NCBI GenBank assembly: GCA_021813555.1
Contig: JAKAKG010000203.1
Location: forward strand, 3,507 to 67,506
Length of the DNA: 64,000 bases
Reading direction: 5' to 3'
Source: Acidobacteriota bacterium
Lineage (GTDB): Bacteria; Acidobacteriota; UBA4820; DSQY01
The notes under the pieces were generated by a model. That model saw only the letters and a program-made list of their open reading frames with translations. It ran no database searches and was not told the DNA's origin. The stretch's first letter is position 1, and each line of letters starts with the position of its first letter. The translations under genes and the position numbers were made by a program. Positions 2,243-51,448 of the stretch are shown here, one piece after another.

Positions 2243-2278
2243 GCGCTATGATACGTCAGATTGGGGAAAGGGCGTCCC

Positions 2279-3700
2279 ATGGCCAAACGCGAGCTGGACT
2301 GGTTTACCATCAAATACAAGGACATTTTTTTTATCGTCCTGGGTGTCGCGGCCATCGCCCTGGTGCTCGGCGGCGCCTTCGCCTACTGGAGGTATCAGGG
2401 AAATCCCCAAGTGCGGGCCGAACGCGCCATCGCGAAAGCACAAAGGGCCGTGGAGATGCTCGAAGGGCCCGACGTGGCCGCTGAGATACGGTCGAGCCTC
2501 GACCAGGCCAAGACCATGCTCGGAACGGCGCGGGCCGAGCTGGCGCAGCAACACTACACCAAGGCCATCGCCCTCGCGGGGGACGTGGTGGAAACCCTCA
2601 AGAACGCCCGCAACGCTTCGCCCGAGAGCCAGAAATTCGCGGTCCTGGTGAGCAGCGAAGGGTCGGTGGAGGTGAAGCGCATCGGCGAGCACCTCTTCTC
2701 CACGGCCAAGGAGAACATGATCCTGGAGGACGGCGACATCGTGAAGACGGGCCAGAACGGCCACGCGAGCATCAAGTACCACAACAACCAGGTGGACATC
2801 ATCTCGCCCGACTCCCTCATGGTCATCCAGGCCCTCACGGGCAACCCCAACGGCGGAAGCCGCATCGAGGTGGCGCTGAAACAAGGCCGGGTGGAGACCC
2901 GAACCCCCGAAACCATGACCGCAAAGGATGAAAGCATCATCCTCACGGAAACGACCAAGATCCGTCCGGCGCCCGCCTCCCGCGTGGGCGTGGCCCAAGA
3001 GGCCTCGGGACAGGTCATCACGTCGGTGCTGGCCGGAACGTCCGAGGTGGAGGCGGCGGGGCGCACGCAGAGCGTGGGGGCCGGCGCCACGGGCGTGTCC
3101 ATCATCACATCGGCGTCCCAGTTTTCGGCGCCTGAGCCTCTCATCGTCCCCCCGGCGGCGGACTATCCCAAGGATTTGCAGATCATCCGCGTGGACGACC
3201 CCGCCAGGCACCCCGTCGCATTCGCCTGGAAAGGCGGCGCCACGAAGACCACTGTCTTTGAGATCTCGGCCAAACCGCTCTTCTCCAGCCTTCTGACGCC
3301 CGAGCGGGAAGTCTCCGGGTCCAGCCTCACGGTGGACGGCCTCCCCGCGGGAACCTATTACTGGCGCATCCGGTCCTCCGGAACCGATGAAAAGGCCTAC
3401 TGGTCCCCCATCTACCGGTTCCGCATTCTCCAAGTCTATCAGCGGCCCAAGATCACCCGCGACCTCAAGCTCACCGTGGACGCCACACCCATCGGCGACG
3501 GCGTGATCATCCAAGGGTCCACCGATCCGGGCGTGTCCGTCTCCGTCAACGACCTGGAGATCCCGGTGAACGCCGACGGCTCTTTCAGCAAAATCGTGTT
3601 GTTCTCCGACGTCGGCACCCAGTCCGTGCAGGTGAGGGCCTTCGACGATGAAGGCAACGAAAAAATCTGGCGCAAGGCCTTCCAGTCCGTCGCCTACTAA
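2279..3700 (+). CDS. Membrane-anchored FecR-domain protein (hypothetical)
   Basis: ORF 2261..3700 in the track begins with TTG. The ATG at 2279 has a gggaaaggg SD. The protein has an N-terminal TM segment and a FecR-like beta region (GSVEVKRIGEHLF...EDGDIVKTGQNGHASIKY). Confidence 0.6.
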   Translation: MAKRELDWFTIKYKDIFFIVLGVAAIALVLGGAFAYWRYQGNPQVRAERAIAKAQRAVEMLEGPDVAAEIRSSLDQAKTMLGTARAELAQQHYTKAIALAGDVVETLKNARNASPESQKFAVLVSSEGSVEVKRIGEHLFSTAKENMILEDGDIVKTGQNGHASIKYHNNQVDIISPDSLMVIQALTGNPNGGSRIEVALKQGRVETRTPETMTAKDESIILTETTKIRPAPASRVGVAQEASGQVITSVLAGTSEVEAAGRTQSVGAGATGVSIITSASQFSAPEPLIVPPAADYPKDLQIIRVDDPARHPVAFAWKGGATKTTVFEISAKPLFSSLLTPEREVSGSSLTVDGLPAGTYYWRIRSSGTDEKAYWSPIYRFRILQVYQRPKITRDLKLTVDATPIGDGVIIQGSTDPGVSVSVNDLEIPVNADGSFSKIVLFSDVGTQSVQVRAFDDEGNEKIWRKAFQSVAY

Positions 3701-4778
3701 GGCGCCCGCCCGCCGCGAACCGGCCCAAGGAACGGACGAGCTCGAAGGCCTCAAGGAGGCCTTCCGGATCAAATCCGAGCAGCTCCGCCTCCTGGCCGAA
3801 GTGGTCCGGACCGCCAATTCCATGCTCGAACCCGAGGCCCTCACGGCGTTCATCATGGAGCGGGTTCAGCTGCTCGTTCAGTCGGAGGCCTGGAGCCTGC
3901 TTCTCCTGGACGAATCGGGCCAGAAGCTCACCTTCGCGGAGGCCATGGGGAGCCGCGCCAAACCCCTCAAGGAGGTCAGCCTGAAGCTGGGAGAGGGGAT
4001 CGCCGGAACCGTGGCCCAGACGGGCCGCCCCATGCTGGTCAACGACGCCCCCCGCAACGCCCTGTTCAGCCCCAAGATGGACCGGATGACGGGCTTTACC
4101 ACGCGCTCCGTCCTGTGCGTGCCCCTCAGGAGCCGGGGCAAGACCCTGGGCGTCCTCGAGATGATGAACAAGAGCGGATCAAGGGGATTTACGGAGGCGG
4201 ACCTGGAAACGACCCACATGTTCGCCGAAATGGTGGGGATCGCCCTGGAAAACGCCTTCGCCTTCCAGCGGATCAAGCTCCTCAGCCTCGTGGACGACTT
4301 GACGCAGCTCTACAACTCCCGCTACCTCCACCAGGCCCTGGCCGTGGAAATCACCCGCGCCAAACGTTACAGCTACGCCGTCTCGCTGATCTTCCTGGAC
4401 CTGGACGGATTCAAATCCGTCAACGACCGCTACGGCCACCTCGTGGGCAGCCAGACCCTCAAGGTCGTGGGACAGATCCTCAAGGAGCGGGTCCGCAACG
4501 TGGACATCGTAGCCCGGTACGGAGGGGACGAGTTCACCGTCATTCTGCCCAATACCGACTTGGAGGCGAGCACCATGGTCGCGGAGCGCCTCCGCAGGGC
4601 CGTCGAAAAGCACGATTACCGAAAGGAGCCCGGCCGCGACTTTACCCTCTCAGCCAGTTTTGGCATCGCGGGGTTCCCCAAACACGGGGACGACCCCGAA
4701 CTGCTCATTCAAAAAGCCGATCAAGCCATGTACCGCGTGAAAGAGAGCACGAAGAACGGCTACGCCGTCTTTGACTAG
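3648..4778 (+). CDS. GAF domain-containing diguanylate cyclase (GGDEF)
   Basis: 376-aa ORF with a GAF-like region followed by a GGDEF domain with an intact RYGGDEF motif. The start is uncertain because it overlaps the upstream ORF by 53 nt. Confidence 0.85.
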   Translation: MKATKKSGARPSSPSPTKAPARREPAQGTDELEGLKEAFRIKSEQLRLLAEVVRTANSMLEPEALTAFIMERVQLLVQSEAWSLLLLDESGQKLTFAEAMGSRAKPLKEVSLKLGEGIAGTVAQTGRPMLVNDAPRNALFSPKMDRMTGFTTRSVLCVPLRSRGKTLGVLEMMNKSGSRGFTEADLETTHMFAEMVGIALENAFAFQRIKLLSLVDDLTQLYNSRYLHQALAVEITRAKRYSYAVSLIFLDLDGFKSVNDRYGHLVGSQTLKVVGQILKERVRNVDIVARYGGDEFTVILPNTDLEASTMVAERLRRAVEKHDYRKEPGRDFTLSASFGIAGFPKHGDDPELLIQKADQAMYRVKESTKNGYAVFD

Positions 4779-4786
4779 GAGCCCCT

Positions 4787-5818
4787 ATGCCCTTCAGTTT
4801 CCGATCGCCCTTCTCCTTCCTCTCCAACGACCTCGCTATCGACCTCGGGACGGCCATCACGCTCGTCTACGTCAAGGGAAAAGGCATCGTGGTGCGAGAG
4901 CCCTCCATCATCGCCATCAACCAGAAGAACGGCAAGGTGGAGGCCGTGGGCACCGAGGCCAAGGAGATGCTCGGCAAGACGCCCGGCAATATCGTGGCCA
5001 TCCGCCCCATGCGCGACGGCGTCATCGCCGACTTCGAGCACACGGAGCGCATGCTGGATTACTTCATCAAGAAGGCCCACAACCGGCGGGTCGTGGTGCG
5101 CCCCCGCATCGTCATCTGCATCCCCAGCCAGATCACCCAGGTGGAGAAGCGCGCCGTGCGCGATTCGGCCTACAGGGCCAAAGCGTCCGAGGTGGTCCTC
5201 GTGGAGGAACCCATGGCCGCCGCCATCGGCGCGGGCATGCCCATCACGGAGCCCACGGGCAACATGATCGTTGACATAGGCGGCGGAACGACGGACGTGG
5301 CTGTCATCTCCATGGCGGGCATCGTCTACTCCCGGACCGTCCGCGTGGCGGGGAACGAGATGGACGAAGCCCTCGTCCAGTTCATGAAAAAGCGTTACAA
5401 CCTCGCCATAGGAGACCGCACCGCCGAGGAACTGAAGATTCGGCTGGGTTCGGCCTACCCCCTGGACAAGGAAGAGTCCATGGAGGTGAAAGGCCGCGAC
5501 CTCATCGACGGCATCCCCAAAACCCTGGTGGTGAGCTCCGAGGAAGTGCGCGAGGCCCTCTCCGAAACCGTGGGCGTCATCATCGACGCGGTCCGCCAGG
5601 CCCTCGAACAGACACCCCCCGAACTGGCCGCGGATATCGTGGACCGGGGCATCGTCCTCACGGGTGGCGGGGCTCTCCTCCGAAACCTGGACAAGCGCCT
5701 TCGGGAAGAGACGGGCCTTCCCGTCCTGATCGCCGACGATCCCCTCTCCTCGGTCTGCCTGGGAGCGGGCAAGATGCTCGACGACTTCGAGCTGCTCAAG
5801 CGCGTCGCCGTAGAGTAA
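4787..5818 (+). CDS. mreB: Rod shape-determining actin homolog MreB
   Basis: 343 aa, typical MreB sequence (DLGTANTLVYVKGKGIV..., IADFE, GGGTTD). Confidence 0.95.
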   Translation: MPFSFRSPFSFLSNDLAIDLGTAITLVYVKGKGIVVREPSIIAINQKNGKVEAVGTEAKEMLGKTPGNIVAIRPMRDGVIADFEHTERMLDYFIKKAHNRRVVVRPRIVICIPSQITQVEKRAVRDSAYRAKASEVVLVEEPMAAAIGAGMPITEPTGNMIVDIGGGTTDVAVISMAGIVYSRTVRVAGNEMDEALVQFMKKRYNLAIGDRTAEELKIRLGSAYPLDKEESMEVKGRDLIDGIPKTLVVSSEEVREALSETVGVIIDAVRQALEQTPPELAADIVDRGIVLTGGGALLRNLDKRLREETGLPVLIADDPLSSVCLGAGKMLDDFELLKRVAVE

Positions 5819-6630
5819 TGGACCTCCGACCCACGGCCCGGCGCCCGGAGATCGCTCTCTGCCTCCTCGTGCTGGGTTTCTTTGTCTTGCTTACCTTCCA
5901 GGCGCGGCAGGGCAGCCGGTCTGTCCTGGGCAACATGGCGCTGGCCGCCTTCGGGCCCCTCCTCTCGGCCTACGATTCGGCGTCCCGCCTCACGCGCGAA
6001 GGGTTGCAGGCGTACCTCTGGCAGAAGAACGCGGCCCTGGAATCGGAGAACCTGGCCGCGGAGAACCGGAGCCTCCAAGGGCAACTGGAACTGGCCCGGC
6101 CGCTGGAAAAGGAAGTGCTGACCTTGCGGGAGCTGCTCCAAGCCCCCAAGCCGCAGGGCTATCAGGTGATCGGCGCCCGCGCACTGACCGCGTACGGCGC
6201 CCCTTTCAGCCGCTACCTCCTGGTCTCCTGCGACGCCCGCTTTCTCATCCCGGAGGGGACGCCCGTGATGGGCCCAGGCGGGGCCGTGGGCCACGTGCAG
6301 GGCGCGAGCGGCACCCTCCACAAGGTCATCCTGCTCACGGACCCCAGCAGCGCCGTGGGAGTCGCGTCGGAGCGGGCCGGGGTCAAGGGGGTCGCCGTAG
6401 GGAAAGGGACCGACATGGAAATCCGCTGGATCTCCAACGAATCGGACGTGCGCGTGGGCGACATGTTTGTGACCTCCGGCGAGGACGGGGTTTTCCCCCC
6501 CGGATTGCGCGTGGGCACGGCCGTCTCCGTGGAGGACGGCGGCGACTACCTGAAGAAGATCACCCTGAGCCCCAGCTCCAAGATGGATCAGCTCACGTGG
6601 GTACTCCTGTTGAGGAAAACCGTTGGCTAA
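5818..6630 (+). CDS. mreC: Rod shape-determining protein MreC
   Basis: 270 aa with an N-terminal TM helix, coiled coil and MreC beta-domain. Start overlaps the mreB stop (TAATG). Confidence 0.85.
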   Translation: MDLRPTARRPEIALCLLVLGFFVLLTFQARQGSRSVLGNMALAAFGPLLSAYDSASRLTREGLQAYLWQKNAALESENLAAENRSLQGQLELARPLEKEVLTLRELLQAPKPQGYQVIGARALTAYGAPFSRYLLVSCDARFLIPEGTPVMGPGGAVGHVQGASGTLHKVILLTDPSSAVGVASERAGVKGVAVGKGTDMEIRWISNESDVRVGDMFVTSGEDGVFPPGLRVGTAVSVEDGGDYLKKITLSPSSKMDQLTWVLLLRKTVG

Positions 6631-7105
6631 GCGCCTGATCCCGGTCCTCGTGCTCCTCCTCCTGGCGGCGGGCGTTCAGACCCTCATCCCGCTCATTTCA
6701 GGAGACCTGACCATCGCCAATCCCTACCTGGCCGTCCTGGTGCCCCTCGCCATGCGCAGCGGCAAGATGGGGGGGGTGTTGTGGGGAGCCGTTCTGGGAA
6801 CCGTAAGCGACGCCTACTTCTCGCCCTTCGTGGGCTTCCACGGCCTTTCCTTCTGCGTTCTCGGGTACGTTTTGGGATGGATGGGCGGCAAGCTCCTCAT
6901 CGGCGGCATCCTGCCCATGGCCATATTTGCCTGGGCGGCCTACGTTCTGGATGCGGCGGCCGTGGCGGGCCTGTACCTGTTGCTGGGCCTGCCCCTTGCC
7001 TCGCCGTTTTGGGTTTTCGTCCTGCTGGGGAGCCTGATCACGGCGGCGCTTACCGCTCTTTTCGAACCCGTGGCCCGGCGCCTCTACCGGAAGGACCAAG
7101 CATGA
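6623..7105 (+). CDS. mreD: Rod shape-determining protein MreD
   Basis: 160-aa polytopic membrane protein immediately after mreC, overlapping it by 8 nt. Confidence 0.75.
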   Translation: MAKRLIPVLVLLLLAAGVQTLIPLISGDLTIANPYLAVLVPLAMRSGKMGGVLWGAVLGTVSDAYFSPFVGFHGLSFCVLGYVLGWMGGKLLIGGILPMAIFAWAAYVLDAAAVAGLYLLLGLPLASPFWVFVLLGSLITAALTALFEPVARRLYRKDQA

Positions 7106-9063
7106 ACCTCCCGCTGGACTCGGGTCTGCCCGCCAAGACGGCCTTCCTCAGAGTCGGGCTCTGGACCGTGTTCCTCCTGTTCGCCCTGCGCCTTTTTTAC
7201 CTCCAGGTGCTGCACGGGGACTACTACCGAACCCTGAGCGAGAACAACTACACCCGTACCATCGTGCTCCGAAGCCCGAGAGGCATGCTCCTGGACCGCA
7301 ACGGCAAGGTCCTGTGCCGCAACCGGGTCAGCTTCTCTCTGGTCCTGGACGCGGCGCGGGGAGGCTCCATCGACGAGACCATCTCGGCCATGAGGCGCAT
7401 CCTGGACTTCACCATGGACCGGGCCCAGGTGGACGCCGCCCTTCGCCGGAGCCCCGTGGCATCCCTCGCCGTGCTGGCCAGGGACGTACCTCCCTCCTGG
7501 CTCCAGAAGATCGAAGCCCACCAGCAGGAGCTCAACATGCTCCGCATCGAGATGGAGCTCAGGCGGGACTATCCCTACGGCCTCTATGCCGGCCACGCTT
7601 TGGGTTACGTAGGCCTCCTCTCGCCCGAGGACGCCGAGCGCATGAAGATCAAGGAAACGGACCCCTTCATCGAAGTGGGCAAGTCGGGAGTGGAGAAGAC
7701 CGCCAACGTTCGTCTCATGGGGGTGAACGGCCGGAGGACCGCCCAAGTCAACAGCCTGGGCCGCGAGGTCGAGGACCCCAAACTGCGCCTTCCGGGCGTG
7801 GGCATCCAGGAGGATCCCGTACCGGGCAAGCCGCTCAACCTGAATCTCGACATGGACCTCCAGACCATCCTGGAGAATGCCTTCGCGGGGGAGACGGGCT
7901 CGGCGGTCTTCATGAATCCCAACACCGGCGAGATCCTGGCCTGGGTGAGCGAGCCCGAGTTCAACCCCAATCTCTTCTCCGGAACCGTGAGCGCCTCCGC
8001 GTGGAAGGACTTGGTGAACGACCCCGCGCGCCCTCTTCTGAACCGCCCCATCCAGGGTGCCTATCCTCCTGGCTCCACCTTCAAACCCTTCGTGGCCCTC
8101 GTGGGCCTGCAGGAGGGCCTCCTCTCCGCGAGCACGGTGTTTACCTGCGGAGGCGTGTGGGACTACGGCGGCCACCCCTTCCACTGCTGGAGCAAAGGCC
8201 ACGGCACCATCGACCTCATCACCGCCATCCAGAACTCCTGCAACATATACTTCTACCACGCGGGAGACCGCATCGGCATCGAGCGGCTGGACAAATGGGG
8301 ACGCCTTTTTGGCCTGGGACGTAAGACCGGCGTGGACTTGCCCGGCGAGACGAGCGGCGTCCTCGGCTCGCCTGAGTGGAAGGCGAAGCGGGGCCTGGGC
8401 CCGTGGTATCCGGGGGAAACGCTGCCCGTCAGCATCGGCCAGGGGTATCTTACGGTCACCCCTCTCCAGCTCCTGAGCTTTTACTCCACCCTCGCCACGG
8501 GAGGAACGCGCTACCGGCCCAGGCTCATATCGGGCCCCCCCGAGGTCCTCAGCACGGTGGAAGTCTCACCCGAAGCGCTCGGCGTCGTGAAGGAGGGACT
8601 CGCCAGGGTCGTGAGCAGCGGCACGGGGAAGGGATGCCAGATTCCCGGCGTGGAGGTGTGCGCCAAAACGGGAACGGCTCAGGTGGTGCAGGCCAGCTCT
8701 GGAAAGAACACCTACTCTCTCGACAAGGCCGAGCGGGACCACGCGTGGATCGCCGGGTTCGCCCCGCGCAGCAACCCCACGGTGGCCTTCGTGGTCATGG
8801 TGGAGCACGGCGGCCACGGCGGCGACGTGGGAGCCAAGATCGCCAAGGCCGGCCTGGAGTATCTCTTCCTCGGCAAGAAGCCCGGAGAGGTGATCGGACC
8901 GCCCAAGCCGCCTTCCGCGTCTCCCCCGCCCCTGGCGGAGCCGGAAATCCCCACGGACCTGCCTCCCGAGGTTCCGCCTCCCCCGCCAGAACAGCCCACG
9001 CCCGAAGGCATCCCCCAGGGGACCCTTCAGGACCAGAACGGGCCCGCGGGGGTGCGCCCATGA
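7102..9063 (+). CDS. mrdA: Penicillin-binding protein 2 (peptidoglycan D,D-transpeptidase) with Pro-rich C-terminal tail
   Basis: ATG at 7102 overlaps the mreD stop (ATGA). It has an N-terminal TM helix and a transpeptidase domain (STFKP, SCN, KTGT). The track ORF 6781..9063 carries a spurious N-terminal extension. The C-terminus is a 50-aa proline-rich tail. Confidence 0.9.
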   Translation: MNLPLDSGLPAKTAFLRVGLWTVFLLFALRLFYLQVLHGDYYRTLSENNYTRTIVLRSPRGMLLDRNGKVLCRNRVSFSLVLDAARGGSIDETISAMRRILDFTMDRAQVDAALRRSPVASLAVLARDVPPSWLQKIEAHQQELNMLRIEMELRRDYPYGLYAGHALGYVGLLSPEDAERMKIKETDPFIEVGKSGVEKTANVRLMGVNGRRTAQVNSLGREVEDPKLRLPGVGIQEDPVPGKPLNLNLDMDLQTILENAFAGETGSAVFMNPNTGEILAWVSEPEFNPNLFSGTVSASAWKDLVNDPARPLLNRPIQGAYPPGSTFKPFVALVGLQEGLLSASTVFTCGGVWDYGGHPFHCWSKGHGTIDLITAIQNSCNIYFYHAGDRIGIERLDKWGRLFGLGRKTGVDLPGETSGVLGSPEWKAKRGLGPWYPGETLPVSIGQGYLTVTPLQLLSFYSTLATGGTRYRPRLISGPPEVLSTVEVSPEALGVVKEGLARVVSSGTGKGCQIPGVEVCAKTGTAQVVQASSGKNTYSLDKAERDHAWIAGFAPRSNPTVAFVVMVEHGGHGGDVGAKIAKAGLEYLFLGKKPGEVIGPPKPPSASPPPLAEPEIPTDLPPEVPPPPPEQPTPEGIPQGTLQDQNGPAGVRP

Positions 9064-10169
9064 AGAACACGCTCAAGGCGTATATCGCCTACGGCGACCA
9101 TCTCACCACGCTCTTGTTCCTCGTCCTTCTGGCTGGCGGAGCGGTGATGGTGCGCTCGGCCACCTTCGGCACCAAGTTCGCGCCCCTCGCCGAGCGCCAG
9201 ACCACGTGGTGCGTCGTGGCCATCGCCGCCTATGTCCTGGCCACCCTCGTCCCCTACGAAGTCTGGATCGAATACAGCTACATCCTCTACGGGCTGTGCA
9301 TCGTGGTGCTCCTGGGCGTCATGATCTTCGGGCACTCCGTGGCGGGCTCCCGGTCGTGGTTCGTCCTGGGCCCGGTGGGATTCCAGCCCTCGGAGCTCGC
9401 CAAGGTGGCCGCGGCCCTCGCCGGCGCGGGCTATATTAAAGATCTCTCGCACAAGGTGATCGGGATCAAGGAATTCTCCATCCTCACGGGCATCATCGCC
9501 CTTCCCATGCTGCTCACGCTCCTCCAGCCGGACTTTGGCACCGCCACCACTTTCCTGCCCATGATCCTCGCGGCCTTCTACCTGAGCCGAATGGGCCTGA
9601 GCCAGATCCTCAAGTGGGCGGCGCTGGCGGCCGCCCTGGGAGGTGTGGTCTTCGTGCTGGGCTGGTTCACGTTCTTCAAGCCCTACCAGAAGGAGCGCGT
9701 CCTTACCTTCCTCAATCCCGCATCGGACACCCGCGGCGCGGGCTATCAGGTGCACCAGGCGAGAATCGCCGTGGGGTCGGGAGAGCTGACGGGCAAGGGA
9801 CTCTATTCGGGCACCCAGAACCGCCTCAATTTTCTTCCGGCACCCCACACCGACTTCATCTTCGGCGTCATCTGCGAGGAGACGGGTTTTCTGGGCGCCG
9901 TGGCCCTCCTGGCGATCTTTTTCGCCCTATTGGGGCGGTTTCTCAGCACCCTCCTGGTGGCGCGGGACATGGAGGGCCGCTTTCTGGTGCTCTGCGCCTT
10001 CTCGGTGATCCTCTATCATCTCTTCATCAACGTGGGCATGGTCATCGGCCTCGTGCCGACCACGGGCATTCCCCTGCCCTTTCTCTCCTACGGCGGGTCC
10101 TCCCTGGTGGGCCTCAGCCTCTTCGTGGGCTTGGCGGCCAATGTCCGCGCTCACCGGTTTGTACGATGA
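9060..10169 (+). CDS. rodA: Peptidoglycan glycosyltransferase RodA (SEDS family)
   Basis: ATG at 9060 overlaps the mrdA stop (ATGA). It is a 369-aa polytopic protein with SEDS motifs (PSELAK, DFIF, LPFLSYGGSS). Confidence 0.9.
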   Translation: MKNTLKAYIAYGDHLTTLLFLVLLAGGAVMVRSATFGTKFAPLAERQTTWCVVAIAAYVLATLVPYEVWIEYSYILYGLCIVVLLGVMIFGHSVAGSRSWFVLGPVGFQPSELAKVAAALAGAGYIKDLSHKVIGIKEFSILTGIIALPMLLTLLQPDFGTATTFLPMILAAFYLSRMGLSQILKWAALAAALGGVVFVLGWFTFFKPYQKERVLTFLNPASDTRGAGYQVHQARIAVGSGELTGKGLYSGTQNRLNFLPAPHTDFIFGVICEETGFLGAVALLAIFFALLGRFLSTLLVARDMEGRFLVLCAFSVILYHLFINVGMVIGLVPTTGIPLPFLSYGGSSLVGLSLFVGLAANVRAHRFVR

Positions 10170-11182
10170 ACCGGCGCTACGCCCGGCAGGCGATCCTCCC
10201 GTGGCTCGGCGAGGCGGGTCAGGCTCGCTTGGGGGCCGCCACGGCGGCGGTCGTGGGCCTCGGAGCCCTGGGGTGCACGTCGTCCTCCCTCCTGGCTAGA
10301 GCCGGCGTGGGGCGCCTCCTGCTCGTGGACCGGGATTTCGTGGAGACCTCCAACTTGGCGCGGCAAGTGCTCTTTACGGAGGCCGATGCCGCGCAGCGGC
10401 TGCCCAAGGCTGTGGCCGCGGAGGCCCACCTGCGGGAGGCCCGGTCGGACCTCGCCACGGAGATTTTCGTGGCCGATCTGGACGCCGAGCTGGCCAGACA
10501 CTTGTTTGCCCGGTGCGATCTCGTCCTTGATGGCACGGACAATTTCGAGACCCGCTACCTCATCAACGACGCTTCGGTCTCCACCGGGAAGCCCTGGGGC
10601 TACGCGGGAGCCGTGAGCACCTACGGTTCGGTCATGCTCTTCCGCCCTGGAGAGACGGCCTGCCTGCGCTGCCTTTTTCCCCAGGCACCCGCCCCCGGCT
10701 CGGCTCCCACGTGCGACACGGCTGGCGTCCTTGGACCCGCCGCGGCGGCCGTGGCGGCCATCCAGGCGGGGGAGGCCATCAAGCTCCTGGCGGGACGGGC
10801 CGACCTGTGCGCCTCGGGCCTGCTCACCCTCGATTTGATGACGTGGACCTTCGGCCGTGCGCCCGCCTTGCGGGATCCCGACTGCCCATGCTGCGCGGAG
10901 CGGCGTTTCGACTTTCTGGATGAGCATTCGGGGAGCCGAACCTACCGCCTGTGCGGCCGCGATGGCATCATGGTCCTCGCGCCCAAGGGAACGCGCCTGG
11001 ACCTGAAAACCATCGAGAAGCGGCTCTCCTCCATGGGGCCCGTGTTCTCAAATCCCTACCTTCTTCAGACCGAGTGGGAGGGGCACCCCGTCACCCTCTA
11101 CGAGGACGGAAGAGCCCTCATCCAGAACACGGGAGATCCGGCGCGCGCCAGGATCCTCTATTCGAAATACTTGGGAATGTGA
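10166..11182 (+). CDS. ThiF/MoeB/HesA-family E1-like adenylyltransferase with Zn-binding CxxC pairs and a ~90-aa C-terminal extension
   Basis: ATG at 10166 overlaps the rodA stop (ATGA). It has a Rossmann GxGxxG (VVGLGALG), paired CLRC...CPCC motifs, and a C-terminal extension (RTYRLCGRDGIMVLAPKG...VTLYEDGRALI) without a rhodanese CRSG motif. Confidence 0.75.
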   Translation: MNRRYARQAILPWLGEAGQARLGAATAAVVGLGALGCTSSSLLARAGVGRLLLVDRDFVETSNLARQVLFTEADAAQRLPKAVAAEAHLREARSDLATEIFVADLDAELARHLFARCDLVLDGTDNFETRYLINDASVSTGKPWGYAGAVSTYGSVMLFRPGETACLRCLFPQAPAPGSAPTCDTAGVLGPAAAAVAAIQAGEAIKLLAGRADLCASGLLTLDLMTWTFGRAPALRDPDCPCCAERRFDFLDEHSGSRTYRLCGRDGIMVLAPKGTRLDLKTIEKRLSSMGPVFSNPYLLQTEWEGHPVTLYEDGRALIQNTGDPARARILYSKYLGM

Positions 11183-11308
11183 GATTAACAGGCGGAATTC
11201 TGAAAGCGGAAAAAGGAAGGCGATTTACCACCAAGACACCAAGGCACCAAAAGGGGCCGGGATCGCGACGCGCGGACTGAAGAGGAACACCGAGGCGGAG
11301 GGCGGACG

Positions 11309-12352
11309 TTGAAAAGAGAGCAGAACGGCCCTAGGCTTTGGACCTGCCCTCTGTGGCCGCTGGGCATGGGGTCCCTGGGCCTAGCAAGGCTCAAGGCCTG
11401 GCGCTACGGCCGCCGGTCTGCCCCCGTGCGTCTGGGCCGCCCCACCGTCTCCATCGGCAACCTGACCTTCGGCGGAACGGGGAAAACCCCCTTCGCCCTG
11501 GCCATGGCCCGCGTGCTCCTGGAGATGGGCGAACGTCCCGGGATCCTCCTTCGCGGCTACGGACGGCGAACCCGCGGCGCACGCCGCGTGGACCAGGCCT
11601 CCGCGCCCGAAGAGGTGGGCGAGGAAGCCCTGCTCCTGGCTCGCGCCCTTCCGGGGACTCCGGTGGCCGTGGGCGAGCGCCGCGAGGAAGCGGCCGCTCT
11701 CGTGCGGGAGCTCTGCTCCGTGTTCATCCTGGACGACGCCTTCCAGCATCTGCGCGTCCACCGCGACGTAGATCTTCTGCTCGTCGACGCTTCCCGTCCC
11801 GGCGATCTCCACGCCCCCCCCGTGGGCCGTCTGCGCGAACCCCTTTCGGCGGCGAAGCGGGCCTCCGTCCTGGTGGCCACGCGCGGCGAGGTGCACCATC
11901 TGGCCCCCTCGCTCCTAGGATGGACTGAAGGCGTGCCCCGCGTGAGCGCCCGCTTCGAGTGGGAGCCCGCGCCCCTGGGCTCTGCCCTTTTCCCCTCCTG
12001 GAAGGCCCTGGGCGGAGTGCCGGTCGTGGCCTTCGCGGGCGTAGGCCATCCAGAATCTTTCTTTGGGCAGGCCCGGGCCGCCGGCCTATCCCTGTCCGCG
12101 CGCGTTGCTTTCAGAGATCACGCCCGGCCCACGGCCGGCCGCCTGCAACACATCCTCTCCAAGGCTCGGGAGACGGGTGCGGGGGCGGTCCTCACGACGG
12201 AGAAGGACGCCGTAAAGTGGGCTCCGCTGTGGCCCGAAGGCCTCCCTCTCGTCTATCCGCGGCTCACCACCCTCCTTGAGGGGGACGTGGAGGAGCTCCG
12301 CGCCCGTCTGGCCGAGGCATGCGGCCACGGGGCAAGCTCCGCGCTGCCATGA
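11309..12352 (+). CDS. lpxK: Tetraacyldisaccharide 4'-kinase (lipid A biosynthesis)
   Basis: P-loop GNLTFGGTGKTP, plus DDAFQH and TEKDAVK motifs. The start is a TTG at 11309; the alternative ATG is at 11366. Confidence 0.85.
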   Translation: MKREQNGPRLWTCPLWPLGMGSLGLARLKAWRYGRRSAPVRLGRPTVSIGNLTFGGTGKTPFALAMARVLLEMGERPGILLRGYGRRTRGARRVDQASAPEEVGEEALLLARALPGTPVAVGERREEAAALVRELCSVFILDDAFQHLRVHRDVDLLLVDASRPGDLHAPPVGRLREPLSAAKRASVLVATRGEVHHLAPSLLGWTEGVPRVSARFEWEPAPLGSALFPSWKALGGVPVVAFAGVGHPESFFGQARAAGLSLSARVAFRDHARPTAGRLQHILSKARETGAGAVLTTEKDAVKWAPLWPEGLPLVYPRLTTLLEGDVEELRARLAEACGHGASSALP

Positions 12353-14781
12353 GCCCCTCGCCCCCGCGCTCCAAGGACCCGCGACGTGTCGTCCAGGTGG
12401 CCCTTCCCCTTCCGCCCCGCGGTACCTTTTCCTACCTCGTCCCCGATGGCGTTGAGACGCCTCTGCCCGGCTGCCGCGTCCGGGTTTCCTTCGCAAGGGC
12501 GGAACATATCGGCTATGTGGTCGAGGACCTAGCCGCCGTTCCTCCCGAATCCCTCAAACCCGTGAAAGACATCCTCGATCAGGCCCCCCTCTTCCCGGCC
12601 GATCTTCTCGAATTCACCCGTTGGATTGCGGACTATTACCTCGTGTCGTGGGGTTCGGTCCTCAAGTGCGCCTACCCCTCGGGGCTGGATCCGGCCCCCC
12701 GGTCCAAGTACAGGCTGGCCGAGCCTCCGCCGGATGCCGATCCGGGCGACATCGCTCCCCTCCTCCACTGCCTCGCTCAAGGGCCGCGGGCTCTGGCCGC
12801 CCTGCGAGCCTCCCTGGGGCCGGGCGCCGATGCCCTCACGGGCAGGGCCGTGCTGGAAGGCTGGGTGGATGAGGAGACTTCCTGGAAGACTCGCAGGCGC
12901 TACGCGGGGGGCGACCGGATCGCGCTCCTCCTCACCCGGGAGGAGGCGCGCACGAGGATCGAGGACGGAGACACTCCGTCCCAGTTCGCCAAGACCCTCG
13001 GAGCCCTCTTGGCCTTCGAGGAACGGGGATTCCCTACGGTGGCGGATACAGCAGCCGCCGCCAAGGTGCCCCAATACGTTCTTCAGGAGATGGCCGAACT
13101 GGGATGGATCGAACTGTTCGGCCTCCTCCCCGCCAAGCTCCCGGGGCGTCCTTCCCCGCACGTCCTGACTCCCGCGCAGCAGCAGGCCATCGGCGCCGTC
13201 GGTAAGGCGCTGGAGGAGGGACGGCACGAGACGTTCCTCTTGTTCGGCATCACGGGCTCGGGGAAGACCGAGGTCTACATGAGGCTCATGGAGCAGGCGG
13301 CCCACGACGGCGGGTCTGCCCTCTATCTCGTCCCCGAGATCTCCCTCGCCTCCTTCCTCGCGCGCCGCCTCCTGGAGCGATTCGGAAGCGACGTGGCCAT
13401 CCTCCATTCCTCCATGACCGAGCACGAACGCGTGCGCCAGTGGCGGCGCGTGGCCGAGGGCGGGGCGCGCATGGTCATCGGGCCCCGCTCGGCCCTCTTC
13501 GCACCCCTCCCGAGCCTCCGCCTGATCATCGTGGACGAGGAGCACGACGGAAGCTACAAGCAGCAGGAGTTTCCCCGCTACCACGCCCGGGACGCGGCCG
13601 TGCTGCGGGGGGCCAAGGCCGGGATCCCCGTGGTTCTGGGGTCGGCCACGCCCTCCGTGGAATCGTTCTACAACGCCGTGGAGACCCGAAAGTACACGCT
13701 GCTCAGCCTGCCGGAACGGACGGGGAAGGCCGTCCTGCCACCCGTGAAGGTGGTAGACATGCGGGAGGAGTTCCGCGCCTCGGGCCAGCGTCTCACCCTC
13801 TCCAGGAGCTTGGAGACGGCGCTGGAAAGCGCGCTCACCGCCGGACGCCAAGCCATCATTCTGAGGAACCGGCTGGGGTTCTCTACCTTCGTCCTGTGCC
13901 GTGAGTGCGGGAAGACCATCCAGTGCGGCCAGTGCTCCGTGGCGCTCACGTTTCACCGACGGGCCTCCCAGCTACGGTGCCACTACTGCGGGCGCATGGA
14001 GCCGGTGCCGGAAACCTGTCCCGGATGCGGCGGCGAGGTGCTGCAATTTCTGGGCGAGGGCACGGAAAAAGTTGAAGATATCCTGGCCAGCCGGTTTCCC
14101 CAGGCGCGGGTGAGGCGCATGGACCGGGACGCCGTGAGGACAGCCCCGGCCTATGACGCCCTCTGGAGGGACTTCGAGGGGGGGGGGGTGCAGATTCTGG
14201 TGGGGACCCAGATGGTCGCCAAGGGACACGACGTGCACAACGTGACCCTCGTGGGCATCCTGGGAGCCGATTTTCTCTTGGGCATGCCCGACTTCAGGGC
14301 CGCCGAGCGCACCTTCCAGCTCATTACCCAGGCCGCGGGCCGCGCAGGCAGGGGCGAAGCCGCGGGGACCGTTGTCCTCCAGTCGTACCATGTGGACCAC
14401 TACGCGGTTCAGGCCGCCAGCGGCCACGATTACGTCACCTTTTACGAGAAGGACATCCGGTACCGGAAACTCGTGGGGTATCCACCCGCCGGGGCTCTGG
14501 CGCGCGTCGAGATCCGCCACGCGGACCCCGCCAAAGCCGAGTCGCTGGCGAACCAAGCAGCCCGGGCCTTGCGCGCCCCCGGCGCGCGGGGGGTTCGCAT
14601 CCTTGGCCCCTCGGAGCCCCCCCTCGCCCGGCTGGAGGGCCTTTACCGGCGCCACATCCTCCTGAAGGCGCCTGCCCGGCATCAGCTCCGGGCTCTCCTC
14701 GCCTCCCTTCTGGACGGTCCTCTGGGCCGCCACACGGGAAAAGCTCTGCTCGTGGAGGTGGACCCTTACGTCCTCATGTGA
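12349..14781 (+). CDS. priA: Primosomal protein N' (replication restart helicase PriA)
   Basis: ATG at 12349 overlaps the lpxK stop (ATGA). It has a Walker A (GITGSGKTEVY), DEEHD, CxxC zinc-finger pairs and a helicase C domain. Confidence 0.9.
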   Translation: MSPSPPRSKDPRRVVQVALPLPPRGTFSYLVPDGVETPLPGCRVRVSFARAEHIGYVVEDLAAVPPESLKPVKDILDQAPLFPADLLEFTRWIADYYLVSWGSVLKCAYPSGLDPAPRSKYRLAEPPPDADPGDIAPLLHCLAQGPRALAALRASLGPGADALTGRAVLEGWVDEETSWKTRRRYAGGDRIALLLTREEARTRIEDGDTPSQFAKTLGALLAFEERGFPTVADTAAAAKVPQYVLQEMAELGWIELFGLLPAKLPGRPSPHVLTPAQQQAIGAVGKALEEGRHETFLLFGITGSGKTEVYMRLMEQAAHDGGSALYLVPEISLASFLARRLLERFGSDVAILHSSMTEHERVRQWRRVAEGGARMVIGPRSALFAPLPSLRLIIVDEEHDGSYKQQEFPRYHARDAAVLRGAKAGIPVVLGSATPSVESFYNAVETRKYTLLSLPERTGKAVLPPVKVVDMREEFRASGQRLTLSRSLETALESALTAGRQAIILRNRLGFSTFVLCRECGKTIQCGQCSVALTFHRRASQLRCHYCGRMEPVPETCPGCGGEVLQFLGEGTEKVEDILASRFPQARVRRMDRDAVRTAPAYDALWRDFEGGGVQILVGTQMVAKGHDVHNVTLVGILGADFLLGMPDFRAAERTFQLITQAAGRAGRGEAAGTVVLQSYHVDHYAVQAASGHDYVTFYEKDIRYRKLVGYPPAGALARVEIRHADPAKAESLANQAARALRAPGARGVRILGPSEPPLARLEGLYRRHILLKAPARHQLRALLASLLDGPLGRHTGKALLVEVDPYVLM

Positions 14782-20100: not shown

Positions 20101-20586
20101 TCAGCTTAACACCCGGACGCCCCAGACCGCCAGAATCAGCACGATGAGACTTAAGGTGACCACGAGGAAGGCGGGCTTGTCGAAGATCTCCATGGGCGGC
20201 CTGCGGCGCACCCACATCCACGGCAGGTAGGCCAACAGGAAGGCCCCAGCGAAAAAGACGGCGGCCCCCGCGGGCTGGACCTTCACGGCCTCCACGGGAT
20301 GGCCGTGCATCATCCAGGCGAAGGCCGTGGTCATGCCGCATGAGGGGCAGGGTTTGTGGAACATCTCATAGAACCCGCACGGAGGAAGGTGAAGCTGGGT
20401 GTGGGTGCCCAGGCCCGCCGGATCGGGATGAACCCACCCCGCCAGGGCAAACACCGTGATCAGCGCCGCAAGGACGACGCCGTAGGCCGCGTGCTGAGGG
20501 AGCGATAACCGTCCCGGCGCCTCACCTTTGGCTTCCGAAGCGAGCTGGCTCAGCGGGGCAGACTTCATGGAGACGGACCGTTTCAA
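20101..20586 (-). CDS. Membrane protein with CPxCG motif (DUF2752-like)
   Basis: 161 aa, polytopic, with a CPSCGMT motif. It overlaps the cheC stop by 4 nt, so it is probably co-transcribed. Confidence 0.5.
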   Translation of the reverse strand: MKRSVSMKSAPLSQLASEAKGEAPGRLSLPQHAAYGVVLAALITVFALAGWVHPDPAGLGTHTQLHLPPCGFYEMFHKPCPSCGMTTAFAWMMHGHPVEAVKVQPAGAAVFFAGAFLLAYLPWMWVRRRPPMEIFDKPAFLVVTLSLIVLILAVWGVRVLS

Positions 20587-21206
20587 CCCTTCTTCTGCAG
20601 CCTGTCGATGGCCGTGAGGATGGTCTCGATGGAGCCTGGATCGGGCAAGAGGCAGAAGTGGCCCGTGAAGGTTTTGTCCCTGGTGGCGAAGTCGGTCTGT
20701 ATGACGAGGGCCTGGTGGGTCACCTCCGCGAGTTCGATCAAGAGCAGGTCCACGACGGCTTGCGCCATGTCCATGGAGAACGCGGGTATGGAGGGGATGA
20801 GCGGAATTTTGAGCAGGGAGCCGATAGCCGTCAAGTAGGAGGACGTGAGGATGTTGCCCACTTCCTTCAGCGCTGAGATCTCCATATCCCCCAAAGGTCG
20901 CTTGGGGCCGTCCCCGTCAAAGAGGACGGTGAGGAGGTGCTCCGCCGACGTGCGGGACATGACCACGAGCATGTTGCCTCGGGACCCGCCGTAGACCCTG
21001 AAGAAGAGCCCCACCACCTCCTCTTCGAGTCCGCCCAGCCTGTGGGCCACTTCCGAAAAGGGCACCAGGTTCACCGCGGGAACCTCGAGGGTGATGACCC
21101 GCCGGGTCATCTGGTGGAGGGCCGTGACCGCGTGCCCGGCGCCGATGTTGCTGATCTCGCGGAGGGCATCCAGCTCCCGCTCTTCAATGGGGTGAAACGT
21201 GGCCAT
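20583..21206 (-). CDS. cheC: Chemotaxis phosphatase CheC family
   Basis: Two CheC-type motifs (EISNIGAGHA and LKEVGNILTSSY). Confidence 0.8.
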   Translation of the reverse strand: MATFHPIEERELDALREISNIGAGHAVTALHQMTRRVITLEVPAVNLVPFSEVAHRLGGLEEEVVGLFFRVYGGSRGNMLVVMSRTSAEHLLTVLFDGDGPKRPLGDMEISALKEVGNILTSSYLTAIGSLLKIPLIPSIPAFSMDMAQAVVDLLLIELAEVTHQALVIQTDFATRDKTFTGHFCLLPDPGSIETILTAIDRLQKKG

Positions 21207-21208
21207 GC

Positions 21209-23125
21209 CTAGTCTCCTTCTCTCCTGATGAGGACCCGGCCGTCAAGCACGTAGGCGATCTCTCCCGTGGCCAGAAGCGCCCCGCCCATCCACTCCGACA
21301 CCATCTCCAGGGGCGCGCCCCAGGGCATGATCACCACCCGCTCTCCCTGGTAGACCCGGCTCACGAGGAGCACCCGGTCGCCCTGGGGATGGACCAGGCG
21401 CAGTCCCGCGCCGTCCCGCCCCACCGGGCCCGCCCTCCATTCCAAGACGGGCAGGAGTTCCTCGCCCGCTTGAAGGAAGCGGCGGGTTCCGGACCAGACT
21501 AGGGGCGCGCTGGAGAGGGGATAAATGTGCTGGATCTGGGAGGCGGGGATGCCGTAGCGAACCTCGTCGTCCCATCCGAAAACAAGGACCCTGGTGAGGG
21601 TGGTGGCCGAAGGAATGACGAGGGTGAACCGGCTTCCCCGGCCCTTCTCACTGGCCATTTCCAGGTGGCCCCCCAAGGACTCCACCGCGGACCTCACCAC
21701 GTCGAGACCCACGCCGCGGCCGCTCACATCGGTCACTTCCTTCCGGGTGGAGAAGGCGGGCGCCGTGAGCAGGTCGAGGAGTTTGGTGTGGTCGAGCAGA
21801 GCCGCCTCATGGGGGGCGAAGAGACCCCGGTCCACGGCGGCCTGGCGGATCGCCTCCACATCGATGCCCCGTCCGTCGTCCGCGAAGGAGATGAGGAGGG
21901 CTTCCGACTCCCGGCGGATATCAAGGGTGAGCCGGCCGCCCTCCGCCTTCCCCTCGCGCCGCCGCTCTTCGGGCGCCTCCAGGCCGTGGTCCATGGCGTT
22001 GCGAACGAGGTGGTTGAGGGGATCCAGGAGCCGTTCCAGAAGGCCCCGGTCAACCCGTTCTTCGGCCCCCGAGACGGTGAGGCTCGCCGCCTTCCCGAGC
22101 CGGGAAGAGAGTTCCCTTGCGGTGCGCCCCAGGCGTTCGGCCAGGACTTCAAAGGAGACGAGCCTCATGGACAGGACGCGGTCGAAGAGGCGGTTGAGGT
22201 GGACCCGCTCCGACTCCAGCCAGAAGTGGTGACGGCGCTTTTCTTCGGGCCCCAGCGCGGCTTCGAACTGGTTCAGATGGTAGAGGAGGTCCGAGGCCTG
22301 CTCCCGCAAGGCGTCCAGGTCTTCTGGAGAGACCCGCATGCTCTGCACGAGGGTCCCCTCGGTCCCGGACCGCAGCGGCGGGGCGGAGGCCTGCTCCAAA
22401 TCCACGTCGGCCACGTCGGGGAGGCTTCGGAGGGAGAGGGCCAGATCTTTGAGGAGGGGTCCTGGCGGAACCAGGAACACGGCGGACCGGAGGCCCGCCT
22501 TCACGATGTGCTGGAGGTCGGGTTCCAGGACCGCCGACGGCTCCTCCGCCTTGACGCGCTCGGCCATGACCATGAAGCGCGCCGCCGGCAGGGGACACGA
22601 CGGGTCGATGGAGACCTTGATCCGGGCTCGGGGCCCGGGGGCGGGTGGGGGGCTGCCCGTAACCGGCCTTCCCGGACCCTCGACCGTGGCGGCCGCCTTG
22701 CTCGCCTCCGTGCCAGTCGGGCCGGCGGGGGGGAGTCCGGCCTCGGGCGAGGCAGAGGCCGCCCCCAAACCGGCCACGGACGCCTCAACCCTCGGGGCCA
22801 TGGCCCCGTCGGAGGACTGGCGCTCCACCGCGTCCATGCAGGCGTCCAATACGTCCACCGCATCCAAGGCCGCCGCCCGCTGCTGGGGCGTGGCCTCGGC
22901 GCCTTTCCTCCAATGGTCGAGAAGGGCTTCTAAATCGTGGGAGAGGCGGCTGGTGAGCTCGAACCCCATGGAGGCGGCCATTCCCTTGAGGGAGTGGGCA
23001 TGCCGGAAGAGGTCCGTGACGGCGTCCACGGAAACGGGCCCCTCCAGCGGGAGGCCACGCCGCAGGAGGCTCACGTGCTCTCGGCCCTCACTCAGGTAGA
23101 GTTCGAGGTACTTGGATAGGTCCAT
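21209..23125 (-). CDS. cheA: Chemotaxis histidine kinase CheA
   Basis: HPt domain (HSLKGMAASMGF), HATPase_c (GRGIDVE...GRGVGLDVV) and a C-terminal CheW-like domain. Confidence 0.9.
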   Translation of the reverse strand: MDLSKYLELYLSEGREHVSLLRRGLPLEGPVSVDAVTDLFRHAHSLKGMAASMGFELTSRLSHDLEALLDHWRKGAEATPQQRAAALDAVDVLDACMDAVERQSSDGAMAPRVEASVAGLGAASASPEAGLPPAGPTGTEASKAAATVEGPGRPVTGSPPPAPGPRARIKVSIDPSCPLPAARFMVMAERVKAEEPSAVLEPDLQHIVKAGLRSAVFLVPPGPLLKDLALSLRSLPDVADVDLEQASAPPLRSGTEGTLVQSMRVSPEDLDALREQASDLLYHLNQFEAALGPEEKRRHHFWLESERVHLNRLFDRVLSMRLVSFEVLAERLGRTARELSSRLGKAASLTVSGAEERVDRGLLERLLDPLNHLVRNAMDHGLEAPEERRREGKAEGGRLTLDIRRESEALLISFADDGRGIDVEAIRQAAVDRGLFAPHEAALLDHTKLLDLLTAPAFSTRKEVTDVSGRGVGLDVVRSAVESLGGHLEMASEKGRGSRFTLVIPSATTLTRVLVFGWDDEVRYGIPASQIQHIYPLSSAPLVWSGTRRFLQAGEELLPVLEWRAGPVGRDGAGLRLVHPQGDRVLLVSRVYQGERVVIMPWGAPLEMVSEWMGGALLATGEIAYVLDGRVLIRREGD

Positions 23126-23158
23126 CCCCGCCTCACCGGTGGCCGGGACCCGGCCCGA

Positions 23159-23972: not shown

Positions 23973-24003
23973 CCTGGAGATCTCCTGGCGGGTTCCGGCC
24001 CCG

Positions 24004-50483: not shown

Positions 50484-50486
50484 GCC

Positions 50487-51415: not shown

Positions 51416-51448
51416 CAAACGCGCCATGAAATTCCCAGGGGATCTGAC

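Follow-up and report, generated by a model that had tools for sequence, protein, structure and literature searches.

The gene that closes the mreBCD-mrdA-rodA cell-shape operon in this Acidobacteriota DNA, referred to here as thiF, probably encodes a housekeeping MoaD/ThiS-type adenylyltransferase, which consists of an E1 core followed by a TBP-like domain and is predicted to be catalytically intact. Its position after rodA is an inherited, lineage-specific gene order, ancestrally rodA-thiF-lpxK, of a single Acidobacteriota clade, and the fact that it comes last in the mre-mrd operon gives no ground for assigning it a direct part in the elongasome. The enzyme belongs to a known, widespread and already described family; the place of its gene in the operon is unusual, but restricted to this lineage. 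The features located in the window, i.e. the whole 64-kb stretch of DNA that was analysed, are collected in Table 1.

Table 1. Coordinates of the cell-shape operon, its flanking genes and the domains and residues of the ThiF-like protein
Feature	Position	Strand	Basis
GAF-GGDEF diguanylate cyclase gene	3648..4778	+	Pfam GAF + GGDEF
mreB	4787..5818	+	PF06723, 496.9 bits
mreC	5818..6630	+	PF04085
mreD, TTG start	6623..7105	+	PF04093
mrdA (PBP2 transpeptidase)	7102..9063	+	PF03717 + PF00905
rodA (SEDS family)	9060..10169	+	PF01098, 281.3 bits
thiF/moeB-type E1-like adenylyltransferase gene, 338 aa	10166..11182	+	PF00899; NF009123 end to end
E1/ThiF adenylation domain, residues 5-242	10178..10891	+	Pfam PF00899
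First CxxC, zinc ligand pair C166, C169	10661..10672	+	corresponding CxxC in E. coli ThiF
Cys183	10712..10714	+	'aptCdtaGVlGp' vs 'rnCrtaGVvGp' of E. coli ThiF
Second CxxC, zinc ligand pair C240, C243	10883..10894	+	corresponding pair in E. coli ThiF
C-terminal TBP-like (helix-grip) domain, residues 247-338	10904..11179	+	
thiF-lpxK spacer, 126 nt	11183..11308	.	no + strand terminator, promoter or Rfam element
lpxK (lipid A 4'-kinase)	11309..12352	+	PF02606
priA (primosomal helicase)	12319..14781	+	tblastn + Pfam in relatives

A sequence-only reading had described thiF as a gene that does not canonically belong to the elongasome operon, packed tightly at the end of the operon and preceded by an overlap at every junction from mreB onwards. 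The gene coordinates and all these points were confirmed. The overlap amounts to 1 nt between mreB and mreC (TAATG), to 8 nt between mreC and mreD, and to 4 nt (ATGA) at each of the mreD/mrdA, mrdA/rodA and rodA/thiF junctions; an identical 8-nt overlap occurs in the relatives L001, L004 and L092. The GAF-GGDEF gene, separated from mreB by a gap of 8 nt, is part of a clade-conserved block and holds the equivalent position in six relatives (L001, L003, L004, L092, L093 and L094). The block that comprises a membrane protein gene, the GAF-GGDEF gene, mreBCD, mrdA, rodA and thiF represents a defined candidate transcription unit, and the conserved mre-thiF block could be used to study the regulation of rod growth in an uncultured Acidobacteriota lineage.

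Gene overlaps are common in this genome. Of the 38 pairs of adjacent same-strand genes in the window, 12 overlapped when longest-ORF starts were used, and overlaps of 4 nt also connect unrelated genes, an ATGA being found between the genes for an RlmN-like radical-SAM protein and an SLT transglycosylase. The overlaps from mreB to thiF argue for one compact transcription unit and not for a shared function. Scanning of positions 3400-12600 returned no promoters, and terminator matches in the same interval occurred at the level expected by chance, with none 3' of thiF on the + strand. Across the whole 64-kb window no tRNA and no Rfam element was found, TPP and Moco riboswitches included.

The ATG at 10166 was established as the true start of thiF, since the in-clade homologues begin in the same way and are mostly 338 aa long (range 337-344). 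The encoded protein matched the Pfam profile PF00899 with 228.5 bits (cut-off 28.1), residues 5-242 covering positions 1-238 of the 238 in the profile, and this E1 core aligns with residues 8-245 of E. coli ThiF (1zud). The AlphaFold2 model had a pLDDT of 92.2, and comparison of its E1 core with E. coli ThiF and MoeB by Foldseek gave TM scores of 0.91-0.93 (normalised to the target). Residue conservation was assessed on an alignment of 95 family members. The ATP-site residues G31, G33, G36, D55, R66, Q67, K81, D104, D122, D125, N126 and R130, which align with those of E. coli ThiF and include the glycines of the GxGxxG motif (G31-G36, 10256-10273), are invariant in 95/95 sequences; the same holds for all five cysteines, C166, C169, C183, C240 and C243, the third of which aligns with the conserved Cys of the active-site loop of E. 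coli ThiF. The PF00899 match and the C166/C169 and C240/C243 pairs confirm the earlier assignment to the E1-like ThiF/MoeB adenylyltransferases with two CxxC pairs.

As for the C-terminal region of about 90 aa, the sequence-only reading had regarded it as a novel domain other than rhodanese, and had proposed to examine its fold in a predicted structure. The protein gave no rhodanese Pfam match and the predicted fold is TBP-like, so that the exclusion of a rhodanese stood; the claim of novelty did not, the domain being known from the literature and matched by NF009123. It has been described as the domain with which bacterial and archaeal E1-like enzymes of the MoeB/ThiF type commonly end (PMC2948915, PMC3597702), with no function assigned (PMC3597702), and clustering at 50% identity gave no fewer than 1,674 clusters that contain it. 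A sequence search of the PDB with the C-terminal domain alone returned only chance-level matches (E of 0.03 or higher). Within the domain, C263-G264 (10952-10957) and R316 are invariant, and the penultimate residue, G337 (11174-11176), is a glycine in 92 of the 95 sequences. In the model, the C-terminus directly follows a helix and ends in G-x, with no exposed flexible GG tail.

The match to NF009123 covered positions 1-337 of 338 of the profile with a score of 285.9 bits, below the curated cut-off of 510, and the protein is a divergent acidobacterial branch that shares the NF009123 / PRK12475 architecture. Lower scores were obtained with the profiles for ThiF (TIGR02356, 209 bits vs a cut-off of 275), MoeB (TIGR02355, 133 vs 377; NF004281, 171 vs 266; NF006444, 209 vs 449), MoeZ (NF005902, 176 vs 647) and the SAMP-activating UbaA (NF047750, 184 vs 450). 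The pathway is not assignable from sequence because the scores lie under every one of these specific NCBIfam equivalog cut-offs, a result that we counted against the housekeeping assignment. We also counted against it that the 64-kb window holds no ThiS/MoaD-like carrier ORF, searched for among small GG-terminated ORFs and by Pfam, and lacks genes for the biosynthesis of thiamin or Moco, with no Pfam match to ThiS, MoaE, ThiG, MoaA or similar families. Three ORFs of 55-130 aa ending in GG were considered as carriers and rejected as out-of-frame artefacts, being low in GC3 and rich in Arg, Pro and Gly.

The gene neighbourhoods of the family were also compared outside the clade. The sample checked for linkage to rodA consisted of 83 distinct loci, 80 of them among the matches listed by a genome scan, which are relatives at 42-52% identity and include no in-clade genomes, and 3 from other sources. 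Among family members at 43-52% identity, a class-V aminotransferase gene, cysteine-desulfurase-like, lies directly downstream of thiF in 8 loci, often overlapping it or only a few nt away, and homologues occur within 4 genes of thiF in 13 loci. Four planctomycete loci carry a ThiS-family carrier (...AVAGG) upstream of thiF, three of them together with a threonine-synthase-like PALP gene, and in a Brevibacillus member (about 45% identity) moaC, moaA and a MoaD-MoaE fusion are found directly upstream. The sulfur-carrier, Moco and cysteine-desulfurase-like neighbours of the relatives in other phyla point to sulfur-carrier activation and not to cell-wall chemistry. The suggestion of a cell-wall-related substrate made in the earlier reading was not supported.

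On the housekeeping assignment, a MoeB/ThiF-like dimer would bind ATP and adenylate the C-terminal glycine of a small carrier of the ThiS/MoaD family, as expected from the family as a whole. The carrier is presumably encoded elsewhere in the genome and would be converted into a thiocarboxylate, with sulfur probably supplied by a cysteine desulfurase; the product could then enter molybdopterin, thiazole or related sulfur-insertion pathways. By analogy, the TBP-like domain probably has an accessory role comparable to that of the rhodanese of MoeZ/MOCS3/Uba4, and its invariant Cys-Gly might serve in desulfurase docking or, through Cys263, in a persulfide relay. The invariant Cys-Gly and Arg, the fixed C-terminus and the frequent translational coupling to genes for cysteine-desulfurase-like class-V aminotransferases make either of these roles directly testable. 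Co-transcription of thiF with the growth-linked envelope genes is likely, and translational coupling may occur as well.

The linkage between rodA and thiF was analysed in 10 lineages of the clade, the gene context being obtained from exact-protein look-ups; a neighbour-joining tree recovered the clade as monophyletic. Adjacency of the two genes was observed in 8 of the 10 lineages, at ThiF identities of 55-97%, and the ATGA overlap is often preserved where they adjoin; lpxK is the downstream neighbour in 6/10. The gene order breaks on either side of thiF within the clade. In L093, L094 and L095 rodA-thiF is retained and lpxK is lost, the breakpoint falling directly 3' of thiF, while in L096 and L097 thiF-lpxK is retained and rodA is replaced by other genes. 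In this subclade, GT2 and LAB_N genes are followed by a gene for a polytopic membrane protein of 525-529 aa, with which thiF overlaps by ATGA, and lpxK lies downstream. Outside the clade, neither RodA, MreB nor LpxK adjoined thiF in any of the 83 distinct loci, which come from many phyla and include other Acidobacteriota classes. The expectation that the linkage would be conserved thus held inside the clade and failed beyond it, elongasome linkage being confined to one lineage (8/10 inside, 0/83 outside). No paper joining mreB, rodA and ThiF was found in the literature.

This pattern bears on a second explanation, according to which, in this lineage, the E1-TBP enzyme is a functional part of envelope growth, either adenylating or thiocarboxylating a carrier or small molecule for envelope modification, or coupling the supply of sulfur cofactors to elongasome activity. 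We consider it unlikely. It would account for the retained coupling of thiF to polytopic envelope glycosyltransferases, and the persistence of rodA-thiF down to 55% ThiF identity, next to a more variable downstream flank with its three breakpoints immediately after thiF, is compatible with selection for joint expression of thiF and the elongasome genes. The renewed ATGA overlap of thiF with a large polytopic membrane protein gene within a GT2/LAB_N/lpxK envelope cluster in the rodA-less L096 and L097 favours it further, and was counted against the housekeeping assignment. However, a gene without its own promoter stays in an operon regardless of function, and overlaps of the ATGA type can come about by default, since the TGA terminates whichever upstream reading frame is in phase with it. 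Furthermore, the operon holds no candidate gene for a substrate or carrier, the linkage is absent from all the out-of-clade loci sampled, and the contexts of the family elsewhere are the classical sulfur-carrier or Moco ones. For the 525-aa protein of L096/L097 there is neither a Pfam family nor a homologue near out-of-clade thiF, and a recurrent association between E1-TBP enzymes and a GT-C-like membrane protein was ruled out on the same grounds.

A more specific form, to which we assign a very low probability, is the recruitment of the E1-TBP enzyme to envelope biogenesis through coupling to polyprenyl-dependent membrane glycosyltransferases (RodA, or the 525-aa protein), the TBP-like domain acting as a built-in persulfide relay or cis-acting carrier. 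It draws on Cys263-Gly264, Arg316 and a C-terminus located one residue past a near-invariant Gly. If it were true, sulfur or an adenylated intermediate could be delivered to an envelope-related acceptor.

Least probable of all, and highly improbable in itself, is the earlier suggestion of a ubiquitin-like conjugation system, in which thiF would encode the E1 of a bacterial machinery like Bil, Bub, CBASS Cap2 or the archaeal SAMP/UbaA and would modify proteins, possibly elongasome components: membership of the E1 superfamily, the sub-threshold UbaA match, the recognition of the Rossmann core by PADLOC E1-E2 models and the speculation of Makarova and Koonin that E1-fused TBP-like modules might act like Ubls speak for it, but no Ubl, E2 or JAB/DUB gene occurs in the operon or in the 64-kb window, the PADLOC models reached at most 56 bits over part of the core (between residues 18 and 176), the 6A-MBL cap2_3 model scored 49 bits vs a cut-off of 320, the C-terminus lacks a flexible GG tail, and the neighbours are rodA and lpxK and not the E2, JAB/DUB and Ubl genes that accompany the E1 in known conjugation or defence systems (CBASS Cap2, Bil, Bub, 6A-MBL).

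With sulfur-carrier activation as the preferred function, the protein was compared with its closest known systems. They include the Bacillus-type E1 + TBP-like MoeB/ThiF proteins (NF009123 / PRK12475), with which it shares a length of about 338 aa, the two-domain architecture with a TBP-like fold and identical positions of the invariant Cys, Gly and Arg residues, although it reaches only 286 bits vs the cut-off of 510 for NF009123. These proteins have the 'E1 core + TBP-like domain' architecture of Makarova & Koonin 2010 and fall into what Brindefalk et al. 2013 call the 'ThiF-MoeZ-MoeB group' (PMC2948915, PMC3597702). Known E1 + TBP-like genes lie in a moa/thi cluster or beside a carrier or cysteine-desulfurase-like gene, whereas the acidobacterial gene follows rodA. 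E. coli ThiF (1zud, 1zfn) and MoeB (1jw9) share the E1 core at 33-38% identity, with the two zinc-binding CxxC pairs and the conserved Cys in register, but they measure about 250 aa and have no C-terminal TBP-like domain. In MoeZ/MOCS3/Uba4 the E1 core, which the acidobacterial protein matches in Uba4 (6yub), likewise precedes an additional C-terminal domain of about 90-130 aa with a conserved cysteine; theirs is a rhodanese, while the acidobacterial one is TBP-like.

As regards the operon, the end of the mre operon also carries unrelated 'hitch-hiker' genes in E. coli, where the order is mreBCD-maf(yhdE)-rng. In both cases the distal gene lacks a known function in cell shape, is conserved within the lineage and is transcribed with the mre genes, in the acidobacterial case probably; the acidobacterial arrangement differs in having an E1-like enzyme as its passenger and in including mrdA-rodA too.

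The best-supported reading of thiF, the ThiF/MoeB-type gene after rodA, is that its product would be a housekeeping sulfur-carrier adenylyltransferase carried along at the distal end of the cell-shape operon, as its final cistron. The protein contains a complete ThiF/E1 adenylation domain (residues 5-242; PF00899, 228.5 bits), whose alignments to E. coli ThiF and MoeB show 33-38% identity, and its predicted structure matched these two proteins with TM values of 0.91-0.93, normalised to the target. Residue conservation was evaluated on 95 family members from many phyla, in which the nucleotide-binding glycines, the conserved Arg, Lys and Asp positions of the E1 domain, both CxxC zinc pairs (C166/C169 and C240/C243) and C183, which aligns with a conserved Cys of ThiF, were all invariant. 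Since the domain is complete, the structures match and the key residues are kept, the enzyme looks catalytically competent; this competence, like the architecture and the family contexts, is read from sequence.

The string from mreB to thiF is close-packed on one strand, and the sequence-only reading had described its coordinates and overlaps exactly; Pfam matches bear out every gene identity. The ATG at 10166 is the true start of thiF, because homologues in its clade, the monophyletic Acidobacteriota group around it, are mostly 338 aa long (337-344) and co-linear with it from the first residues. Scans in and around the operon returned no promoter and no Rfam element, and downstream of thiF the terminator scan gave no + strand candidate. 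Overlapping genes are nothing exceptional in this genome: 12 of 38 same-strand neighbour pairs in the window overlap when longest-ORF starts are used. The ATGA overlap of an RlmN-like radical-SAM gene with an SLT lytic-transglycosylase gene (32533-34361) indicates that 4-nt overlaps here also join functionally unrelated genes.

Window coordinates of the cell-shape operon, its flanking genes and conserved sites of the thiF C-terminal domain
Feature	Coordinates	Strand	Remarks
GAF-GGDEF gene	3648-4778		upstream, 8 nt from mreB
mreB	4787-5818	+	Pfam
mreC	5818-6630	+	Pfam; TAATG junction, 1-nt overlap with mreB
mreD	6623-7105	+	Pfam; TTG start, 8-nt overlap with mreC
mrdA/PBP2	7102-9063	+	Pfam; ATGA junction
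rodA	9060-10169	+	Pfam; ATGA junction
thiF-type gene	10166-11182	+	338 aa; Pfam; ATGA junction with rodA
Cys263-Gly264	10952-10957		invariant, 95/95 E1-TBP sequences
Arg316	11111-11113		invariant, 95/95 E1-TBP sequences
Penultimate Gly and last residue	11174-11179		Gly near-invariant; protein ends exactly 1 residue past it in 93/95 sequences
thiF-lpxK spacer			126 nt, after thiF
lpxK	11309-12352		downstream of thiF
priA	12319-14781		after lpxK

Directly upstream of mreB, the GAF-GGDEF diguanylate cyclase is preceded by a 479-aa single-pass membrane protein (2261-3700) with no real Pfam family, its sole match being a marginal Glucodextran_B hit (28.8 bits vs a cut-off of 27, residues 415-468). 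Wherever an in-clade locus extends far enough upstream, the pair is found in this position (six loci: L001, L003, L004, L092-L094), and the block of the ~480-aa membrane protein, GAF-GGDEF and mreBCD-mrdA-rodA is intact in every rodA-thiF locus with enough flank, suggesting that the c-di-GMP enzyme belongs to the cell-shape gene block. Elsewhere the window carries a chemotaxis-type cluster on the minus strand (20101-25299: DUF2752, CheC/CheX, a CheA-like Hpt/HATPase kinase, a CheY-like receiver, CheW and MCP), a separate CheR gene near its end (63083-63940) and a 1,244-aa protein with a gingipain-like Peptidase_C25 domain and PKD domains (54955-58689). Two ORFs of about 205-214 aa (28-645 and 946-1590), called by codon-position GC, have no Pfam match and an unusually high GC1 (0.88-0.90); they could be false calls or else encode low-complexity proteins.

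The closest thiF homologues (P0001-P0057, 55-97% identity) were monophyletic in a neighbour-joining tree that left all 80 genome loci outside. Within this clade, rodA and thiF are adjacent in eight of the ten sampled lineages, namely the window, L001 (88% thiF identity), L003 (72%), L092 (65%), L093 (60%), L095 (58%), L004 (56%) and L094 (55%). Five of these (window, L001, L003, L093 and L095) still show the ATGA overlap; in L094, L092 and L004 the genes are separated by a gap of 8-25 nt. On the other side, thiF is followed by lpxK-priA in the window, L001, L004 and L092, by one inserted gene before lpxK in L003, and immediately by unrelated opposite-strand genes in L093, L094 and L095. The remaining lineages, L096 (63%) and L097 (62%), have no mre/mrd genes upstream of thiF and retain lpxK after it. 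From these gene orders the ancestral order was rodA-thiF-lpxK, which later rearrangements broke upstream of thiF in some descendants and downstream of it in others. In L096 (3359-9069) and L097 (3175-9137), the string runs arginase, GT2, LAB_N, a 525-529-aa polytopic membrane protein, thiF (with an ATGA overlap) and lpxK, and looks like a lipid-A-modification cluster; the polytopic protein matches no Pfam family, but its N-terminal part, inspected by eye, recalls GT-C enzymes of the ArnT/PMT type.

Outside the clade, 80 loci were found among the matches listed, with relatives at 42-52% identity from Chloroflexota, Planctomycetota, several Acidobacteriota classes, Syntrophobacteraceae, Brevibacillus, Brocadia and others. 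RodA, MreB or LpxK was adjacent to thiF in none of the 83 out-of-clade loci (these 80 plus three metagenome loci); in a single locus, L016, the other strand encodes an MreB homologue at a distance of ~2 kb. The linkage to the cell-shape operon is thus genuine and passed down within a single lineage, so that lack of conservation in close relatives does not count against it; it is not obligatory there and is absent from the loci compared outside.

Neighbours were clustered for the 75 out-of-clade loci whose thiF was recovered by the ORF caller (72 of the 80 and the three metagenome loci). A class-V, cysteine-desulfurase-like aminotransferase lies within four genes of thiF in 13 of them and directly downstream, often overlapping or a few nt away, in eight (L016, L018, L019, L025, L026, L028, L029 and L070). 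Four planctomycete loci (L019, L070, L071 and L091) have a ThiS-family carrier (...AVAGG) upstream, accompanied in the first three by a threonine-synthase-like PALP gene, giving the string PALP/ThrC-like, ThiS-family, E1-TBP; of these genes, the PALP one is present in L018 and the ThiS-family one in L091. The aminotransferase directly follows in L018, L019 and L070, and lies four genes downstream in L071. Directly upstream of the Brevibacillus thiF lie moaC, moaA and a gene fusing MoaD with MoaE. Such neighbourhoods are what an enzyme activating sulfur carriers of the MoaD/ThiS/CysO type would be expected to have. Proteins of ~1,000 and ~1,340 aa, which by eye resemble TamA/BamA and TamB, are encoded upstream on the opposite strand in 12 and 11 loci respectively, an association that seems to reflect local synteny and not a link in function.

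A functional tie of thiF to envelope growth would agree with the persistence of rodA-thiF in the clade and with the second arrangement, in which thiF is once more coupled to a large membrane protein within a cluster of envelope genes; however, the out-of-clade contexts lend it no support and no candidate substrate is at hand, and we consider it improbable. A promoterless gene stays in its operon whatever its function, and the TGA in ATGA ends any upstream frame in the right phase; therefore, overlap and in-clade conservation do not demand a functional link. Other bacteria also have passenger genes at the distal end of their mre operons, such as maf and rng in E. coli. The proposed role as E1 of a ubiquitin-like conjugation system was not borne out and is very improbable, as genes for a carrier, E2, JAB or any other partner are missing from the operon and PADLOC/NCBIfam defence-type E1-E2 models cover only part of the E1 core (≤56 bits).

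For the preferred sulfur-carrier adenylyltransferase, we infer the carrier, pathway and sulfur donor. Within the 64-kb window, neither a ThiS/MoaD-like ORF nor any gene for thiamin or Moco was found. The window does encode a four-gene, TPP-dependent 2-oxoacid:ferredoxin oxidoreductase (48906-52018: ferredoxin, POR_N, TPP_enzyme_C and POR gamma), so the cell needs thiamin diphosphate. With ThiF, a known enzyme family gains a new and divergent member, whose operon position is specific to one lineage; the conserved GGDEF-mre-mrd-rodA-thiF block of an uncultured Acidobacteriota lineage retains some interest.

The C-terminal domain of ~92 residues, previously taken as novel, belongs to a described architecture, an E1 core with a TBP-like domain (E1-TBP; Makarova & Koonin 2010). 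Over its whole length the protein aligns with the NCBIfam model NF009123 (PRK12475, "MoeB/ThiF family adenylyltransferase", 338 positions), scoring 286 bits, under the cut-off of 510, and the isolated C-terminal 98 aa match positions 243-338 of that profile. The ThiF-MoeZ-MoeB group is listed in the TBP-domain superfamily with its function noted as unknown (Brindefalk et al. 2013, PMC3597702). The domain profile matches 1,674 clusters at 50% identity, 983 of them with E ≤ 1e-10, and in the best 150 of the 1,674 the match reaches the protein C-terminus or comes within a few residues of it. Some interest attaches to the part this domain plays in so large a family. Because the Cys-Gly pair is invariant and class-V aminotransferase genes are frequently coupled to E1-TBP genes, we propose that it might serve in desulfurase docking or in persulfide relay through Cys263, a role resembling that of the rhodanese domain of MoeZ, MOCS3 and Uba4.
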